Shown here: positions 1 to 27,567 of the stretch, piece after piece | How positions within the stretch are numbered: the stretch's first letter is position 1 | Layout: every line of letters begins with the position of its first letter | Source: a virus | Taxonomy: Duplodnaviria > Heunggongvirae > Uroviricota > Caudoviricetes | Virus record (IMG/VR): IMGVR_UViG_2541047892_000001 | Length of the DNA: 35,657 nt | Direction: 5' to 3' (one strand) | The notes under the pieces: generated by a model | The model's database searches: none | The model's input: the letters and a program-made list of their open reading frames with translations, nothing else | What the model was told of the DNA's origin: nothing | Program-made: the position numbers and the translations under genes

Positions 1-95
1 TTTTCTTCTGAAATGTACCCCAGGCTGGCAAAGGCTTATCCGACCAATAAATTACCGGATTTACGGGGCGAATTTATCCGTGGCTGGGATGACGG
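1..95. repeat. Inverted repeat arm (95 bp, perfect) paired with 1324..1418; truncated by window edge
   Basis: Reverse complement of 1..95 is identical to 1324..1418; first mismatch is at nt 96/1323. Confidence 0.85.
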
Positions 96-21791: not shown

Positions 21792-22102
21792 TATTCACTC
21801 CAGTACTTTTCCGGGCGGGCAATACCCGGACCACATTCCACGGTGTATTCCACCAGGTCTACGCCGAGGCGGGTCAGGTCAGCAAACCAGTCACCAGAAG
21901 GTTTTTTCTCCAGCTCAACCATTTTACGGTCAGCCAGATAATCCAGTTCGCGGCGCAGCTCCAGCGGTGTGGTGTCCGGGTAGATGGCACGGGACACATC
22001 CAGCAGCAGCGTCTCGCTGGCGGTGTAAGGGCGGGTCTTGTTCAGGGCAACCAGCAGACTCCAGCGCAGGGATTCGCGGCGTACTCGGGTAATATCGACC
22101 AT
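21791..22102 (-). CDS. Conserved Mu-like late protein (function unknown)
   Basis: 103 aa; coupled to the neighbouring genes. Confidence 0.5.
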   Translation of the reverse strand: MVDITRVRRESLRWSLLVALNKTRPYTASETLLLDVSRAIYPDTTPLELRRELDYLADRKMVELEKKPSGDWFADLTRLGVDLVEYTVECGPGIARPEKYWSE

Positions 22103-22428
22103 TATTGACCTCCGGTATTGCGGTACTGCTGTACCACTTCCAGTTTGTTATAAAGCGCGTCCAGTTTGGCCTCAATGACTGTCTGGCCACGGATATAATC
22201 CTCTCGACGGACATAATTCAGCGGTAAATCCGCTTTAAATCGCATAAATTCTTTTTCCAGCTCGCCCCAGTTGGAGGCGGATTGTTGCAGGGCCTGTTCA
22301 AGGGAGGCGAATCGTGCCGCCTGGCGTTCTTCTGTTTTACTGAACAACCATTTGGCGAGCCCTCCCACAAACCCCATGAAGGTGAGCAGAAAACTCACCA
22401 CCGTCCAGAATTCAACCTGCAGTGTCAT
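22102..22428 (-). CDS. Small membrane protein with N-terminal TM helix and coiled coil (Mu gp25-like)
   Basis: 108 aa; hydrophobic N-terminus FWTVVSFLLTFMGFVGGLA followed by a helical region; adjacent to the lysis genes. Confidence 0.5.
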   Translation of the reverse strand: MTLQVEFWTVVSFLLTFMGFVGGLAKWLFSKTEERQAARFASLEQALQQSASNWGELEKEFMRFKADLPLNYVRREDYIRGQTVIEAKLDALYNKLEVVQQYRNTGGQ

Positions 22429-23075
22429 TTCTGTAATCCTTCCCGTTCATCCAGCAGCGCGTTTATCTGGTTCCGCCAGCGACGACATTGCCATGCGTTG
22501 TCGATGATGTTGGCGAGAACGTCACGCTGGGAGACACCCGAATCGCGTAACCGGGTGTCAGTGGTTTCAGGTTGCCCGGTCGCTGTGCCAGAGCGGGTGC
22601 CAGTGGCGGCAACTGAGTCTGAATGACCGGTGTCGACGGATGCGTTGTCATATCCGAGTGCGGCGTTGTACTGGCGCACGAAACCGCGAGTAAACACGCA
22701 CTCAATGGGATGACTCTTACCTTTTTCATCAATCCAGCGCTGTGTGACATCGTTAATTTGCCCCTGTAGTTGTTTGTTCCGGCTCTCCAGTTGAGCAATC
22801 TGCTCAAGATAACCGGCTTCAGCCCGCTGCCCGGCGGCCACCTGCTCCTGATACCGTCTGGCCCAAGCCCGCAGCGCAGCATTCTCAAGCGTTGCCTGCG
22901 CCGTTTTGTACGCGTCAAATGCTGACTGCAACTGACTGAGCGCGGTATTACCGTCACGCTTTGCAGAGTCATGACCACTTCTGTATCCCATGGCATACAG
23001 GCCGATCAGAAAGGCATTGATAAGAATGGCCAGCAGAATGCCGCGCCACGGCAGCTTTTTAACCAGATGCCACAC
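22425..23075 (-). CDS. i-spanin (Rz-like)
   Basis: N-terminal TM (WRGILLAILINAFLIGLYAMGY) then a Q/A-rich coiled coil; likely GTG start at 23075 preceded by GGGGAGG with 8-nt spacing; the ORF-track start at 23177 would overlap the endolysin by about 120 nt. Confidence 0.6.
   Translation of the reverse strand: MWHLVKKLPWRGILLAILINAFLIGLYAMGYRSGHDSAKRDGNTALSQLQSAFDAYKTAQATLENAALRAWARRYQEQVAAGQRAEAGYLEQIAQLESRNKQLQGQINDVTQRWIDEKGKSHPIECVFTRGFVRQYNAALGYDNASVDTGHSDSVAATGTRSGTATGQPETTDTRLRDSGVSQRDVLANIIDNAWQCRRWRNQINALLDEREGLQK
22463..22729 (-). CDS. o-spanin (Rz1-like lipoprotein) embedded in the i-spanin gene in another frame
   Basis: ATG at 22729 gives MKKVRVIPLSACLLAVSCAST... with a lipobox (LAVSC) and a Pro-rich mature part; lies entirely inside the i-spanin CDS. 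Confidence 0.6.
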   Translation of the reverse strand: MKKVRVIPLSACLLAVSCASTTPHSDMTTHPSTPVIQTQLPPLAPALAQRPGNLKPLTPGYAIRVSPSVTFSPTSSTTHGNVVAGGTR

Positions 23076-23793
23076 AACTGCTGCCTCCCCATGTGAGATA
23101 TCGCGGTGCCAGTTCGCGCAGGATGCGCTGCGGATAATGGCGGTTCTCCCGCCAGCTGGCCGCATTGCGTCCGGCATTCACCGTGGCGACATGTCCGAAC
23201 CAGCGGGTGCTGTCCAGACCTTTCTGTGATGCAAGCCGCCTGTCCCGTTGTACCCAGCCCAGACCACCGTTATAGCCTGACAGTGTCATGGCCATACGCT
23301 CGCAGTCGTTGGCGGCGCTGACGCGCTGCCACAGCCAGCGGTCATAGCTGACCAGCGCCCGGATGGCCCATGCCGGATTAAACGGCTCACGGCTGTTAAG
23401 TCCCGGCATCAGCTGACTTATCCAGTCGGCAGTGGCAGGCATGAACTGCGCCAGTCCCTGAGCACCAGCCGGCGAGACCGCATCAGGTCGCCAGCCGCTT
23501 TCCTGATGCAGTTGCGCGGCGAAATCTGCCACCGGCGCAGACAGTCCCCATTCAAGCCGGGCATTACGGATCACATCATCGCGATACTGCAGCGCAGCCT
23601 GCGGAGGCTGCGCTGCGCGGGCCTGACTGAAGAAGCCACCACACCAGAGCAGCCAGACAATCACCAGGTTGCCAGCAAGCTGCCACCAGAAGCTGTATTT
23701 ATCGTTACGTGGTTCGCCGTGTCTGATGGCGGTTACGCCCAGACCAAAGGCGAACAGAATAATGAGGGTGATTTGAGGCCAGTTCATGGTCAC
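23059..23793 (-). CDS. Endolysin, lytic transglycosylase (SLT domain) with hydrophobic N-terminal segments
   Basis: 244 aa; SLT catalytic region QLHQESGWRPDAVSPAGAQGLAQFMPATADW; two hydrophobic stretches in the first 60 aa; start overlaps the holin stop (ATGA). Confidence 0.82.
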   Translation of the reverse strand: MTMNWPQITLIILFAFGLGVTAIRHGEPRNDKYSFWWQLAGNLVIVWLLWCGGFFSQARAAQPPQAALQYRDDVIRNARLEWGLSAPVADFAAQLHQESGWRPDAVSPAGAQGLAQFMPATADWISQLMPGLNSREPFNPAWAIRALVSYDRWLWQRVSAANDCERMAMTLSGYNGGLGWVQRDRRLASQKGLDSTRWFGHVATVNAGRNAASWRENRHYPQRILRELAPRYLTWGGSSCVASG

Positions 23794-24140
23794 AGTCCTG
23801 TTGCCACAGCCAGACAGACCGCTGCAACAATCAGTGCACGGCGGATTAACGCAGCAGAAAATACAAGGTGAAGGCCGGTCTGCACAGGGAAACGCCCTTC
23901 AGCCATCAGCCTGTCTTCATGTTTCAGGTACTGACCGGGACGGGCTTTGGGGAAGAGCGAACGGTCAAGCCAGTAACCCAGCACTGCTGCCAGCGTGATG
24001 AGTGCCAGCTTGTAGATCACAACAGGCAACTGCTGTGGCGAGACCAGAGCGATGGTGCCCAGCAACAGCACTGAGGTCAGCAGCCAGCCGCTGAGGCGAG
24101 GTTTTTTAACAGGGGGAATGAATTTTTTCAGGCTTTTCAT
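23790..24140 (-). CDS. Putative holin (three predicted TM segments)
   Basis: Three hydrophobic helices; AAGGAG 6 nt upstream of the ATG at 24140 (alternative ATG at 24170); first gene of the lysis cassette. Confidence 0.55.
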   Translation of the reverse strand: MKSLKKFIPPVKKPRLSGWLLTSVLLLGTIALVSPQQLPVVIYKLALITLAAVLGYWLDRSLFPKARPGQYLKHEDRLMAEGRFPVQTGLHLVFSAALIRRALIVAAVCLAVATGL

Positions 24141-24203
24141 GTGTGTCTCCTTGTTTGGTGGAGACAGCATCACAAATGTGGCGGGATACGGATTTTAAAG
24201 CGC

Positions 24204-24243
24204 GTTATAAGTGTTCGCAGAGGGAAGCGACCAGAATGGTCGC
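24204..24243 (-). promoter_or_regulatory. Candidate activator-dependent late promoter for the lysis operon
   Basis: Minus-strand TATAAC (24209..24204) lies 17 nt downstream of a perfect dyad GCGACC-n5-GGTCGC (24227..24243) occupying the -35 position, about 65 nt upstream of the holin start. Confidence 0.4.
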
Positions 24244-24270
24244 ACACAAAACATAGGGGAGGCAAGCACA

Positions 24271-24594
24271 ATGACTGAACCGAAACAGTCTGGTATTAAA
24301 AAAGGGTTCCTCTTTGGGAGCAGAATCGGAGAGCAGAATAAAACTTACACGCTAAGCTTGGATGCATGTTGTCCAACCGAAGCGATTATAGAGCTGAAAA
24401 ACGTTCTGGTTGCACTTGAAGAGAGAAGAAGTCATTTCGCCAGCGGAGAAAACAACGTCATGCTAATTGGCGATGTGGCGGCGACATCACGATATAAAAC
24501 CGCACCTAATCCTGCGATTCAGTTATCCTTCGACCAACGAATACTGGAAGCGGAATCAGCAGTTCCCAGAACGGTTCGTCCTCACCAGTCTTAA
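24271..24594 (+). CDS. Hypothetical small protein (107 aa), divergent from the lysis operon
   Basis: ATG at 24271 preceded by GGGGAGG with 8-nt spacing; 3' end overlaps the convergent 191-aa gene by 89 nt, so one of the two may be miscalled. Confidence 0.3.
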   Translation: MTEPKQSGIKKGFLFGSRIGEQNKTYTLSLDACCPTEAIIELKNVLVALEERRSHFASGENNVMLIGDVAATSRYKTAPNPAIQLSFDQRILEAESAVPRTVRPHQS

Positions 24595-25081: not shown

Positions 25082-25196
25082 TCAGAAAACAATCCTTATC
25101 GAACAAACACTGCACGTAGGTAATGCATCCAGTAAATCGCGTTAATAGAAATCATGTATCTCAAAACTTCACTCTGAACTCTGACAGTGAAAGAAC

Positions 25197-26122: not shown

Positions 26123-27109
26123 CTATTTCAAAATATAACGATATTTACTATCTGGAGTGTTTTGTTGGTCAAGTAATAGAGCTCTACATGGGGCGGTCAA
26201 AACACGGGCATAACGACCATCGGGGTTTATGTTGATGTAACAAGTTTTCCCTTTAACACCATAAGATTCAGGTATTATTGCCTGTGTAGACACCGTGAAT
26301 TTAAGGGTATGCCAGCCCGATTTTTGCTTGTAGCTTGAAACCGAATGGAAATCATCTGAGTACTTATTTAACCCTGGAAACATGCTGCGTAATGCTGGGA
26401 TGGAATCTTCTATTATTTTGTCGTTGGTTTTAATGTTAAAAACGCTGGTTTCAGTAGATGCTACTGCTTTAGCATTTCCCCATTTACCAGCGAACACAAT
26501 CATTCCCACGAAAAATATTGCGACAAGAACTAACGCTCCCCCCAACACTACTACATGAGGCTTCCGGCTTCTGGTTGGTACAGTCGCGACTGATTTTGCC
26601 CCGCTGTCCGATGGAGGTGATAGAGTTTTACTCTCATCACGAATATTCAGCAGATCATCAAAATAACCAAACACAGCCTGCAACTGCTCTTTGTCCAGGC
26701 CTTTAAGATGGGTTGTACCGAAATGCTTCAGACAGTATCTGTCACGGTCAAGACGATACCTAGGGTCAGTAAGCACCATTATTTTGCTGACCAGAAGATT
26801 ACAGTCCTTCATATTCTGGATCTGTTGTGCATATCTCTGGAGGATCTCAACCGCACCATGATAATCAGCCGCAGTCATTTCATTAACTGTTTTGGTATTA
26901 AGTTTCGTGTGGATCGTCATCCATAGTTCGCGCTTACTTTCCCCCAGATCAACCAATTCATCCATCAATCTGTGTAAATCGCGTTTTTGCAGCAACGAAA
27001 TTGGTTGCTGGGCAGAGGGAAGTATGTCAGCAGAATAGTTATGAATGGTAACATCACCGCTGACAACGTTACCCACATCTCCGTTAACTGTTTGCTTCTC
27101 TTTACTCAT
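26123..27109 (-). CDS. Hypothetical bitopic membrane protein (328 aa): N-terminal Gly-rich motif, about 190-aa cytoplasmic domain, one TM, about 110-aa C-terminal domain
   Basis: TM helix HVVVLGGALVLVAIFFVGMIVFAG; start codon overlaps the repressor stop (ATGA); AT-rich. Confidence 0.65.
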   Translation of the reverse strand: MSKEKQTVNGDVGNVVSGDVTIHNYSADILPSAQQPISLLQKRDLHRLMDELVDLGESKRELWMTIHTKLNTKTVNEMTAADYHGAVEILQRYAQQIQNMKDCNLLVSKIMVLTDPRYRLDRDRYCLKHFGTTHLKGLDKEQLQAVFGYFDDLLNIRDESKTLSPPSDSGAKSVATVPTRSRKPHVVVLGGALVLVAIFFVGMIVFAGKWGNAKAVASTETSVFNIKTNDKIIEDSIPALRSMFPGLNKYSDDFHSVSSYKQKSGWHTLKFTVSTQAIIPESYGVKGKTCYININPDGRYARVLTAPCRALLLDQQNTPDSKYRYILK

Positions 27110-27567
27110 TTTCTCTTTGTATTTTTGTTCATTATTCCACCTGTTCCTATGGTTACGTTACCTTTGATAACATTCCCCAGAACATCTCCATGAATAACCT
27201 GTTCCGCCCGTTCTCTGGAGGAGCCAGTCGTCAATGCCGACAAAACTGAACCTTTGACTTGTAACGGTGCTTGCCGGTAGTGCTGAAGTAACTCCATTTC
27301 ATCACGTGATAAAGTTATACCTGATGATTCCCCAGTAAGAATGAACTGTACGTTGGCCCCAATTCTTGCAAAGGCTGCAAGTAACTCACCTCCGGGAACT
27401 GCAACCCCTCGTTCATATTTCCCCCACATTTCTCTTGAAACGCCACAAAGGGCTGCTACTTCAGCCTGCTTGAGTGATAACCGCGAACGCTCAGCTTTGA
27501 ACCGCGACGCGCAAAGAGAATCAAAATTCACATAAACCTCATTGACAATGAGAACAATGGTTCTCAT
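27106..27567 (-). CDS. XRE-family HTH transcriptional repressor (putative prophage repressor)
   Basis: HTH_XRE signature LKQAEVAALCGVSREMWGKYERG; divergent from the early operon; alternative GTG start at 27531 with a GAGG site would leave the operator and early promoter outside the coding region. Confidence 0.8.
   Translation of the reverse strand: MRTIVLIVNEVYVNFDSLCASRFKAERSRLSLKQAEVAALCGVSREMWGKYERGVAVPGGELLAAFARIGANVQFILTGESSGITLSRDEMELLQHYRQAPLQVKGSVLSALTTGSSRERAEQVIHGDVLGNVIKGNVTIGTGGIMNKNTKRK

Follow-up and report, generated by a model that had tools for sequence, protein, structure and literature searches.

A two-helix leader on the endolysin and an RNA hairpin at the holin start in the lysis cassette of a BcepMu-type Escherichia coli prophage

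SAR endolysins such as P1 Lyz, phage 21 R and Mu gp22 carry an N-terminal hydrophobic segment and are exported by Sec independently of the holin (PMC9239132). Signal-peptide endolysins, exemplified by Lys44 of the Oenococcus phage fOg44, also leave the cytoplasm by Sec before lysis begins; they lose the signal and are kept inactive until the membrane potential is dissipated by the holin (PMC6116005). A signal peptide has likewise been predicted for the KS10 homologue of the enzyme described here (PMC2628397). The window, that is, the entire 35,657-nucleotide stretch of viral DNA that was analyzed (IMG/VR record IMGVR_UViG_2541047892_000001), encodes an SLT-domain endolysin with a leader of two predicted helices, next to a holin gene with a predicted RNA hairpin over its start.

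The locus is the lysis cassette of a BcepMu-type (Mu-like) transposable E. coli prophage and comprises a holin, an SLT endolysin, a nested spanin pair and a small membrane protein (Table 1). A Holin_2-3 holin, an SLT enzyme, Rz/Rz1, a phrog_462 protein, gp26 and gp27 are common to the window and to BcepMu and KS10 (Bcepmuvirus), and BcepMu gp22 and KS10 gp9 belong to a homologous SLT catalytic family (PMC2628397). From a profile match and translation, the spanins form a two-component system in which a lipoprotein o-spanin is embedded in the i-spanin gene. The BcepMu annotation also has an embedded Rz1 equivalent. A cI/Cro-type HTH gene (27567..27106) and three further genes are oriented toward the holin, a layout also seen in BcepMu, where gp17–gp20 are followed by the holin. 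The cassette is common: of 5426 complete E. coli genomes, 631 contain the holin region, and the fused endolysin is also present in Salmonella, Pectobacterium, Serratia, Pantoea, Dickeya and Morganella. Despite this distribution, the only annotation is "SLT domain protein".

The 108-aa membrane protein has the same position as Mu gp25 and the same architecture of an N-terminal transmembrane helix with further helical structure; sequence relatedness is undetectable. No Pfam match to DUF2730 was seen at E ≤ 10, a BLASTP comparison with Mu gp25 was negative, and hhalign returned a probability of 0.6%. With all three negative, its identification as a Mu gp25-type releasin was rejected.

Table 1. 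Features of the lysis cassette and of the region preceding the holin gene (positions in the window).
Feature	Position	Strand	Basis or remarks
108-aa protein with N-terminal TM helix	22102..22428	-	phrog_462, 1.6e-36
i-spanin (Rz-like)	22425..23075	-	GTG start overlapping the endolysin gene end; phrog_1403 "Rz-like spanin", 6.4e-91
o-spanin (Rz1-like), 88 aa, embedded	22463..22729	-	lipobox LAVSC, Pro-rich mature part/tail; translation
Endolysin precursor, 242 aa	ATG 23787..23059	-	stop codon 23061-23059; enclosing ORF 23059..23793
Leader, residues 1-58 (phrog_5479 module)	23614..23787	-	profile match, homologue alignment, AlphaFold2 helices, conservation in alignment A3
Helix 1, residues 3-21	23781-23725	-	
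Basic loop between helices, R22-S32			basic residues R22, R27, K30
Helix 2, F33-F53	23691-23629	-	near-invariant LLW(C)GGFF, then S54-Q55-A56-R57-A58
Predicted signal peptidase I site, A56-R57-A58	23614..23622	-	cut between 23614 and 23613; mature N-terminus AQPPQAALQYRDD
Predicted mature SLT lytic transglycosylase domain, residues 59-242	23062..23613	-	Pfam SLT, Slt70 alignment
Catalytic E96	23502-23500	-	Slt70 alignment
Holin, 116 aa, Holin_2-3	23790..24140	-	Pfam PF13272, E = 1.1e-40, 138.6 bits against a cut-off of 27; phrog_1528 "holin", 1.1e-53
RNA hairpin over holin SD and AUG	24136..24176	-	fold, leader comparison
Hairpin core	24166-24160, 24159-24151, 24150-24144		5' arm UGUCUCC, loop, 3' arm GGAGACA (holds SD GGAG)
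Hairpin outer pairs	24176-24168 with 24143-24136		holds AUG 24140-24138
Conserved, partly palindromic motif TTATAACGCGCTTTAAAATCC	24190..24210	-	comparison of 50 leaders
Candidate extended -10 element TGTGATGCT	24166..24174	-	spacing only

A preliminary description, made from the letters of this DNA, had proposed an SLT-domain endolysin, and the reading frame is indeed present with matches to Pfam SLT (PF01464; residues 93–189, E = 8.5e-15, 54.8 bits against a cut-off of 21.3) and phrog_669 "endolysin" (2.6e-70). The ATG at 23787 is the likely start: an AGGA precedes it by 8 nt, and the TGA stop of the holin gene (23792-23790) ends 2 nt before it; the RefSeq annotation has an identical start. 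E96, within the sequence HQES, aligns with RQES in the catalytic Glu region of E. coli Slt70 (chain 1sly_A). HQES/E96 is invariant in two alignments (A2 and A3), and within the SLT domain the alignment columns of C162 and C238 are also invariant.

The two hydrophobic stretches noted earlier ahead of the catalytic domain were found at I6–I21 and L37–A58, and the A-x-A-like site is present after the second helix as A56-R57-A58. An AlphaFold2 model from a 44-sequence alignment placed helices at residues 3–21 and 33–49; it is poor overall (mean pLDDT 57.5) and was used for helix positions only. The earlier term "Gly-rich" overstates the nature of the second stretch, as there are three glycines in about 20 residues of helix 2. 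Only 4 of 20 residues in this helix (WWQLAGNLVIVWLLWCGGFF) are Gly, Ala, Ser or Thr (~20%), and it is rich in Trp, Leu and Phe. By our own count, these four small residues make up 53–63% of the P1 and phage 21 SAR domains and ~55% of that of Mu gp22. SAR domains and ordinary helices could not be told apart by a crude hydropathy sum, and residue composition was used instead. Thus, in place of the single, weakly hydrophobic, Gly/Ala/Ser/Thr-rich N-terminal segment of a SAR endolysin, the window enzyme has helices at 3–21 and 33–53 and an aromatic second helix. As in a signal peptide, a hydrophobic core is followed by small residues at −3 and −1; a signal at the extreme N-terminus with a basic n-region is not seen, as helix 1 comes first and the basic residues lie in the loop between the helices. 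The layout of two helices and A-x-A is not due to chance, since it recurs in 80 IMG/VR loci with 137 distinct leaders, and the WPQ and LLW(C)GGFF sequences are strongly conserved. An activating cysteine of the P1 Lyz type was also considered; C49 is replaced by Ser or Trp in relatives and in free-standing proteins and is not required. The 63-aa leader, used by itself as a protein query, matched fragments only, and no account of a two-helix endolysin leader was found in the literature.

The leader has relatives that are not endolysins. Residues 1–54 match positions 1–53 of the 53-position phrog_5479 profile (E = 8.6e-14), to which the free-standing members of JBD18 and FoX1 score 2.4e-31 and 3e-17. 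The free-standing homologues of the leader, collected by tblastn and aligned, are phage membrane proteins of ~55 aa; they were found in JBD18/B3-like phages (26 loci), FoX1-5, Mica, BcepB1A and a Rhizobium phage. JBD18 gp22, FoX1 gp46, Mica gp63 and BcepB1A gp72 share WPQI, LGLG, HG.PR..K and LLWWGGFF with the leader, and these two-TM proteins have the same length and the same predicted topology. All free-standing proteins end at GGFFG or GGFFSQP, exactly before the A-x-A region of the fused leader. In the Pseudomonas B3-like phages the protein is encoded by a separate gene between the holin and the endolysin; several other free genes sit in replication or early regions, whereas the window module is fused to the enzyme. 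By these alignments, a small phage membrane protein known in free-standing form has here been fused in frame to an enzyme as its leader, a relationship missed in the preliminary description. In the window it is not an independent ~55-aa gene product and, as an in-frame fusion with the SLT domain, could become independent only via proteolysis. No description of phrog_5479 was found in the literature, and the cassette provides a first functional context for this uncharacterized family.

Relatives of the enzyme carry a variety of leaders. Among the 150 best representatives of the SLT family, nearly all complete N-termini bear a signal peptide, a lipobox or a TM segment. Plain signal peptides ending ...DSDA↓AQPP are found in relatives of ~78% identity, whose cassette is the same in other respects and contains no separate gene for the module. 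Two others (P0275 and P0214) have leaders collapsed to one helix, and the signal peptide of P0085, with the junction ...ATASHA↓AQPPRASLQYRNDL, is a textbook example. Canonical signals are found at the matching junction in P0279, P0276, P0274, P0085, P0032 and BcepMu gp22, and the lipobox cysteine of JBD18 aligns adjacent to it. The N-terminus of BcepMu gp22 (MRVLIAFVVALLGAAAPVAA↓QVP) is a short classical one-helix signal, in contrast to the 58-residue two-helix module of the window enzyme. Across the 137 distinct fused leaders, the junction consensus is [A/V/S]-x-A↓A-[Q/E]-P-P. Position −3 is Ala, Val or Ser, and −1 is Ala, or Ser in two cases, while −2 varies among R, N, H, C, D, S, Q, A and Y. 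In E. coli, a second kind of leader (type B, as in PhiKM) is the commonest, with 572 genomes against 67 for the type of the window (type A). The first helix of type B is charged and amphipathic, and the two-helix topology may therefore not be general. Type B as a frameshifted type A was rejected because no type-A-like peptide was found in any frame. The DNA of the two types cannot be aligned between ~23767 and 23640; judged from this comparison, the type B leader is a replaced segment.

The analysis supports an enzyme with an export or membrane-insertion leader in place of a cytoplasmic endolysin delivered by the holin. To this extent the earlier proposal of a SAR or otherwise membrane-tethered enzyme holds. 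The SAR assignment is not supported: given the two helices, the low Gly/Ala/Ser/Thr content, the A-x-A conserved at −3/−1 and its alignment with the cleavage sites and lipobox of relatives, an enzyme cleaved and soluble in the periplasm is no less likely than one that is permanently tethered. From sequence comparison, the endolysin is most likely a Sec-exported precursor cut by signal peptidase I. Its first 58 residues would form a membrane hairpin in which the short N-terminus faces outward, the loop with the basic residues R22..K30 is cytoplasmic and helix 2 crosses from inside to outside. Helix 2 with S-Q-A-R-A would serve as an internal signal peptide for export of the catalytic domain by Sec, and signal peptidase I would cut after A58. 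The products would be a soluble periplasmic lytic transglycosylase beginning AQPP and a two-helix peptide of ~58 aa left in the membrane, of the same family and length as the free-standing phrog_5479 proteins. By analogy with the literature on exported endolysins, the enzyme would be harmless until the holin depolarizes the membrane (PMC6116005).

The main rival, somewhat doubtful but deserving attention, is that the leader remains uncut and its two-helix hairpin keeps the endolysin in the inner membrane, inactive or spatially restricted until the holin collapses the membrane potential, which would make it functionally SAR-like or tethered; the 108-aa membrane protein might assist it. Cleaved signals have shorter h-regions, and the run of ~21 hydrophobic residues at F33–F53 is closer to a signal anchor. 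The conservation of WPQ and LLW(C)GGFF also favors a tether; it goes far beyond what an ordinary signal peptide needs, and suggests for the leader a separate function that might depend on its remaining attached. A protein with an N-terminal TM segment is found at the position of the Mu releasin gp25, and Pseudomonas Mu-like transglycosylases were classed as SAR endolysins by Chamblee et al. (PMC9239132). However, the 108-aa protein has no similarity to DUF2730, helix 2 does not have the composition of a SAR domain, near relatives carry ordinary cleavable signal peptides or lipoboxes in the same cassette, and the A-x-A is conserved around a variable −2 residue. An artefact, in which a frameshift or the merging of a small membrane protein gene with an endolysin gene produced the long reading frame, is suggested by the two separate genes of the B3-like phages but is effectively refuted. 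The in-frame fusion is seen in 80 of 80 IMG/VR loci, in many genera of the Enterobacterales and in the RefSeq annotation; the mature domain has no start codon and signal peptide of its own, and type B is not a frameshifted type A.

Upstream of the endolysin, a 6-bp stem GTCTCC-n9-GGAGAC partly containing the holin ribosome-binding site had been pointed out. It is present (24165-24160 and 24150-24145, with a 9-nt loop) and belongs to a longer, conserved hairpin that covers both the SD and the AUG. In the predicted fold, the 7-bp core (UGUCUCC/GGAGACA) has −9.1 kcal/mol and the fold over 66 nt has −14.5 kcal/mol (z = −2.76), with 1 of 200 shuffles folding as well. Opening the region from SD to AUG costs 11.2 kcal/mol compared to 5.2 ± 2.0 with shuffled flanks (1.3% of shuffles reach 11.2). 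In each of the 50 distinct leaders from relatives, the minimum-energy fold pairs the SD, and 96.7% of the cells of alignment A4 are paired. The stem barely varies and no two-sided covariation was found in this alignment, in which one row, L090, is misaligned. With that row set aside, all one-sided changes are G-U compatible except a U to C in L017. L090 pairs ACCACCUC with GAGGUGGU over its own SD, and BcepMu buries GGGAGG in a structure of −30 kcal/mol (z = −5.8); the window family, L090 and BcepMu thus reach the same outcome with three unrelated sequences. The JBD18 holin leader is not significantly structured. A dual-start holin of the λ S type was rejected, as the upstream GTG-ATG (24173/24170) lacks an SD and, in KP12 and F1022, does not share the holin frame as it does in the window. 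Structure at the ribosome-binding site controls translation in the sdi stem-loop of λ S and in the fold-back inhibition of IS10 transposase, and the conserved hairpin would similarly lower or condition translation of the holin.

Whether it gates translation depends on where the mRNA starts. Opening the hairpin takes 10–13 kcal/mol in any RNA that has the 5' arm; the late transcript may start downstream of this arm, and the late mRNA would then not fold in this way. The motif preceding the hairpin is conserved in the 50 leaders, recognizable in BcepMu as CTAAAGCCGATTAAAAG, and matches in both orientations in the window. Homology among the E. coli prophages starts at the motif, at ~24207. It is probably a late-gene activator binding site or a promoter element. 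A σ70 scan found no consensus promoter. The spacing, with the center of the motif ~42 bp upstream of 24159, points to the candidate −10 element, which would put the late transcript start near 24159 inside the hairpin loop. Its [G/C/A]ATGCT sequence is kept in 48 of 50 leaders, the exceptions being L049 (CATTCT) and L090 (unrelated sequence).

Two other views of the hairpin were weighed. That the GTCTCC/GGAGAC complementarity has no RNA function, the block being promoter or operator DNA in which the match to the SD is incidental, is improbable. The near-invariance of the stem without compensatory changes and its position beside the promoter-like motif fit this view, but the one-sided changes are nearly all G-U compatible, the unrelated leaders of L090 and BcepMu also pair their SD, and by our own estimate a 7-nt complement to the SD would arise within 40 nt by chance in roughly 0.2% of cases. 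Tentatively, and with less weight than a direct effect on translation, the hairpin may instead act as an insulator and not as a throttle. A late promoter composed of the activator site (24210-24190) and the extended −10 (24174-24166) would yield mRNA that lacks the 5' arm and is freely translated, while read-through from the repressor operon would carry the arm and make no lethal holin, an IS10-like fold-back. The opening energy does fall from 10–13 to ~4.2–4.8 kcal/mol with 5' ends at 24163-24156. The HTH gene and its three neighbors are co-directional with the holin, as in BcepMu, and no strong terminator was found between DUF2441 and the holin. In L083, L089 and BcepMu the TAAAAT-like portion of the motif reads TAAAAG or TAAAGG, a better fit to a protein-binding site than to a −10. 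Against this, the promoter was assigned from spacing arguments, and a CATAAT box in L090 would place the whole hairpin inside the mRNA.

When the two parts are combined, a two-helix Sec-exported precursor cut by signal peptidase I with a hairpin that buries the ribosome-binding site and affects holin translation is the preferred reading and is given about an even chance. An unlikely variant would make the precursor "two-in-one", releasing the transglycosylase together with equal amounts of a functional ~58-aa phrog_5479-family protein, with a fold-back hairpin that insulates the holin from the repressor operon and is bypassed by a late promoter starting inside it. The small two-helix protein could then modulate holin triggering or membrane integrity.

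Under the preferred reading, the two-helix leader would be a third kind of export signal for endolysins of Gram-negative phages, beside SAR domains and plain signal peptides. The free small gene with a lipoprotein enzyme, the two-helix fusion, the collapsed one-helix signal and the plain signal peptide offer a natural series for testing the role of the leader in lysis timing. If late transcription begins within the hairpin, the structure would silence nothing but transcripts reading through from the co-directional repressor operon, and such a fold-back would show how a transposable prophage silences a lethal gene beside a constitutively transcribed immunity operon.

Compared to known systems, the hairpin resembles λ S sdi and IS10 in placing RNA structure at the ribosome-binding site of a lethal or tightly dosed protein. 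It differs from λ S in that the window holin has no conserved dual start, and from IS10, where the transcript starts inside the structure, in that a start inside the hairpin is a candidate. The endolysin shares with the SAR enzymes an N-terminal hydrophobic segment, a predicted holin-independent export of the catalytic domain by Sec, and a Mu-like context with spanins and a downstream small TM protein; it differs from them in having two helices instead of one, an aromatic and Leu-rich rather than Gly/Ala-rich helix 2 and a conserved A-x-A, and in that no DUF2730 releasin was found. With Lys44 it would share the Sec export of a muralytic enzyme before lysis (PMC6116005). Unlike Lys44, the window enzyme serves a phage of a Gram-negative host, has an extra helix and a cytoplasmic loop before a signal whose cleavage is predicted, and carries a leader homologous to an independent small membrane protein.

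The endolysin most likely starts at ATG 23787 rather than GTG 23793, because AGGA lies 8 nt upstream of this ATG, the holin stop codon falls 2 nt before it, and RefSeq annotates an identical 242-aa product. The preliminary description had placed two hydrophobic stretches before the SLT domain, the second Gly-rich and ending in an AxA-like site, and both stretches and the site were found in the sequence, although "Gly-rich" overstates the second. A low-confidence AlphaFold model (pLDDT = 57.5) has helices at residues 3-21 and 33-49. The Pfam SLT domain covers residues 93-189, and its catalytic E96 lines up with the E-S motif in Slt70. Two cysteines, C162 (nt 23304-23302) and C238 (nt 23076-23074), do not vary among the enterobacterial proteins and recur in JBD18 and BcepMu gp22; a disulfide between them in the periplasm is possible.

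Features of the lysis cassette, the endolysin leader and related loci
Feature	Location	Strand	Remarks
rve transposase and early genes	from ~27.8 kb	+	
cI/Cro-type HTH gene	27567..27106	-	followed by three accessory genes, lysis cassette, head and tail genes
Holin	24140..23790	-	Pfam Holin_2-3
SLT endolysin	23787..23059	-	242-aa product
Endolysin hydrophobic segments	residues 3-21 and 33-53		
Endolysin inter-helix loop	R22-H-G-E-P-R-N-D-K-Y-S32		carries basic residues
Endolysin stretch after helix 2	S54-Q-A-R-A58		
i-spanin	23075..22425	-	
o-spanin	22729..22463	-	embedded in i-spanin gene
108-aa protein	22428..22102	-	N-terminal TM helix; phrog_462
Mu gp26-position protein		-	phrog_436; part of the cassette
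Mu gp27-family protein		-	Pfam Phage_Mu_Gp27; part of the cassette
Free-standing phrog_5479 genes (Mica, BcepB1A, Rhizobium phage)	L092 1995-2165; L093 2495-2662; L094 2001-2165		

Residues 1-54 of the endolysin match phrog_5479, a PHROG of 53-aa proteins, over the whole length of the profile (E = 8.6e-14). In Pseudomonas phage JBD18 and 26 B3-like IMG/VR loci, this module (MGAPQIIWIV...VWWGGFFG, then stop) has a gene to itself, flanked by those of the Holin_2-3 holin and the SLT protein, and the SLT protein has its own lipoprotein signal, MKRLLTLGLLGLLSAC. Free-standing members are also encoded by Xanthomonas phages FoX1-5, Burkholderia phages Mica and BcepB1A, and a Rhizobium phage. When aligned, all of the free-standing proteins end at GGFFG or GGFFSQP, where the fused proteins go on with S-Q-A-x-A. 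The window gene therefore joins a small membrane protein of two helices in frame to a mature SLT domain. An artefact was ruled out by the presence of the fusion in 80 of the 80 closest IMG/VR loci, with identities as low as 69%, and in many genera (E. coli, Salmonella, Pectobacterium, Serratia, Pantoea, Dickeya, Arsenophonus and Morganella). New here are the leader of two helices and the finding that it corresponds to a family of free-standing proteins; literature searches returned no description of either.

The free-standing genes of Mica, BcepB1A and the Rhizobium phage are found in or just after replication/early regions, outside lysis cassettes, with primase/helicase, DNA polymerase B, DUF669 and sliding clamp genes as neighbors. 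The module's own function may therefore be unrelated to lysis.

The leader interior (window 23640-23767; 1940-2080 in locus L002) is swapped wholesale between prophages that are otherwise ~97% identical. The leader type of the window (type A) occurs in 67 of 5426 complete E. coli genomes and that of PhiKM (type B) in 572. Helix 1 of type B has K, E and R spaced as in an amphipathic helix; an origin of type B as a frameshifted type A was rejected. At least six unalignable types of interior exist, one of which, that of the related SLT protein P0235, has two helices without GGFF. The SLT genes of two IMG/VR loci (L134 and L138) begin with M-A-HG(Q/K)..K and retain just the loop plus helix 2 (…LLLWGGFFSPPANA, then S) as a one-helix signal, a form that seems to stand midway between the two-helix leader and an ordinary signal peptide.

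Whether the leader is cut or serves as a tether was judged by comparison with the leader sequences of relatives. The junction in 137 distinct leaders reads (A/V/S)-x-A followed by A-(Q/E/G/S)-P-P, with R, N, H, C, D, S, Q, A or Y at position -2; conserved -3 and -1 positions with such a pattern are typical of signal peptidase I. Among the best 150 SLT family representatives, complete N-termini almost always bear a signal peptide of the classical kind, a lipobox (roughly two dozen cases by simple pattern matching) or a transmembrane segment; the family as a whole is exported. BcepMu gp22 begins with MRVLIAFVVALLGAAAPVAA followed by QVP, and the KS10 homologue has a signal peptide predicted by its authors (PMC2628397). 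Relatives of ~78% identity have ordinary signal peptides ending at the same junction, e.g., MANRIRNNDPGTGLLLLLFILLLVGALDSDA before AQPP, and a Pectobacterium cassette with a plain signal peptide is otherwise identical, the separate module gene being absent. In collapsed leaders, helix 1 is joined directly to the end of helix 2, e.g., MTMRWTQITLIVLLWCSGFLTQAHA before AQP, and the lipobox Cys of JBD18 aligns adjacent to the junction. By these comparisons, the mature domain functions as a periplasmic enzyme, and the A-x-A occupies a position that is a processing site in relatives. Cleavage of the leader at the predicted signal peptidase I site is somewhat probable. A permanent tether, in which both helices remain uncut, is rather unlikely. 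Three features speak against cleavage: a hydrophobic run in helix 2 that is long for a cleaved signal (~21 residues), a conservation of WPQ and LLW(C)GGFF that far exceeds the needs of a signal peptide, and the mosaic leader interior. The signal-anchor-release (SAR) domain suggested as one option in the preliminary description was not borne out: the leader is unlikely to be one because it has two helices and not one, helix 2 is low in Gly/Ala/Ser/Thr (~20%), and A-x-A follows it. The SAR domain of Mu gp22, whose sequence was examined, has >50% of these residues, as do those of P1 and P21. A P1-type disulfide switch was dropped as a requirement since the leader Cys is not conserved.

The stem previously noticed over the holin Shine-Dalgarno (SD), GTCTCC (24165-24160) with GGAGAC (24150-24145), is present as reported, and its core extends to UGUCUCC/GGAGACA (-9.1 kcal/mol) with outer pairs that take in the AUG. 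RNA folding upheld its stability (-14.5 kcal/mol over 66 nt, z = -2.76), and opening SD to AUG costs 11.2 kcal/mol compared to 5.2 ± 2.0 kcal/mol with shuffled flanks. The SD is paired in the minimum-energy fold of all 50 distinct leaders from relatives. Pairing in the stem alignment is 96.7%; a formal test found no two-sided covariation in the stem because it hardly varies, and one-sided changes are G-U compatible except for one U-to-C (locus L017) and a misaligned row (L090). In the L090 leader, the SD is covered by a 9-bp stem with the core ACCACCUC/GAGGUGGU. The BcepMu leader (L178 2060-2122) folds into a nested structure of great stability (-30 kcal/mol, z = -5.8), which buries the SD GGGAGG by pairing it with a segment beginning 2 nt past the conserved TTAAAAG motif. 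The stronger argument is that three unrelated sequences, those of the window type, L090 and BcepMu, reach the same SD burial. The JBD18 holin leader has no significant structure. A hairpin without any role as RNA is improbable. A lambda S-type dual start was rejected because the upstream ATG is not conserved in frame.

The role of the hairpin is decided by where the mRNA starts. Among the prophages, homology sets in at the motif TTATAACGCGCTTTAAAATCC (24210-24190), which is palindromic in part and recognizable in BcepMu too. Some relatives have TAAAAG or TAAAGG for its TAAAAT-like part, a variation that fits an activator site more readily than a -10 box. If such a site were centered near -42, TGTGATGCT (24174-24166) would be a candidate extended -10 and late RNA would start at ~24159, in the hairpin loop, in which case the opening energy falls to ~4.2-4.8 kcal/mol. 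A cI/Cro-type repressor operon lies upstream and is directed straight toward the holin, as it is in BcepMu, and no convincing terminator was found between the two. A 7-bp GC-rich hairpin, GCGACCA-UUC-UGGUCGC (24243-24227, - strand, -11.1 kcal/mol), sits just upstream of the holin promoter block, followed by UUCCCUCU with no U tract, and might weakly terminate transcripts of the repressor operon. With a late start in the loop, the SD hairpin would block holin translation only on transcripts from upstream, a fold-back insulation comparable to the arrangement in IS10; the idea is attractive, but its basis is spacing and we regard it as doubtful. That the hairpin is a plain translational throttle has close to an even chance.

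A partial copy of the palindromic motif, TTAACGCGATTTA, occurs at 25130-25145 on the - strand, preceding the start of the DUF2441 gene by ~50-65 nt, and could bind the same regulator as a second site. An antisense ORF (24273-24594, + strand, within ORF 24211..24594) located between DUF2441 and the holin has a strong SD, GGGGAGG, 7 nt before its ATG; its product (MTEPKQ...) has no Pfam or PHROG match. The RefSeq numbering of the identical prophage in E. coli 503025 passes over a locus tag (RS01530) here.

A complete prophage of the BcepMu type (Mu-like, transposable) makes up the window. The phage records closest to it are those of Klebsiella 'KP12' clone 2, Escherichia PhiKM, which is classified as Bcepmuvirus, and Phi06_2974 B; the holin region is present in 631 of the 5426 complete E. 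coli genomes. The record OM835952.1 (L001, 'Klebsiella phage KP12 clone KP12_2') is labelled Vequintavirinae but has a Mu-like, BcepMu-type genome, and is probably a co-purified induced prophage. The phrog_462 protein, annotated as 'lipoprotein' or 'membrane protein', has a conserved YVRREDYIRGQ motif, and its conservation extends from E. coli as far as Pseudomonas B3-like phages and BcepMu gp25. Similarity of this protein to DUF2730 was not detectable; it shares its position and its N-terminal-TM and helical build with Mu gp25, which is a releasin (PMC9239132). Gene order is identical to that of BcepMu from gp17 to gp27, and the window enzyme, to which the SLT endolysins BcepMu gp22 and KS10 gp9 are homologous, functionally groups with the exported endolysins (PMC6116005).
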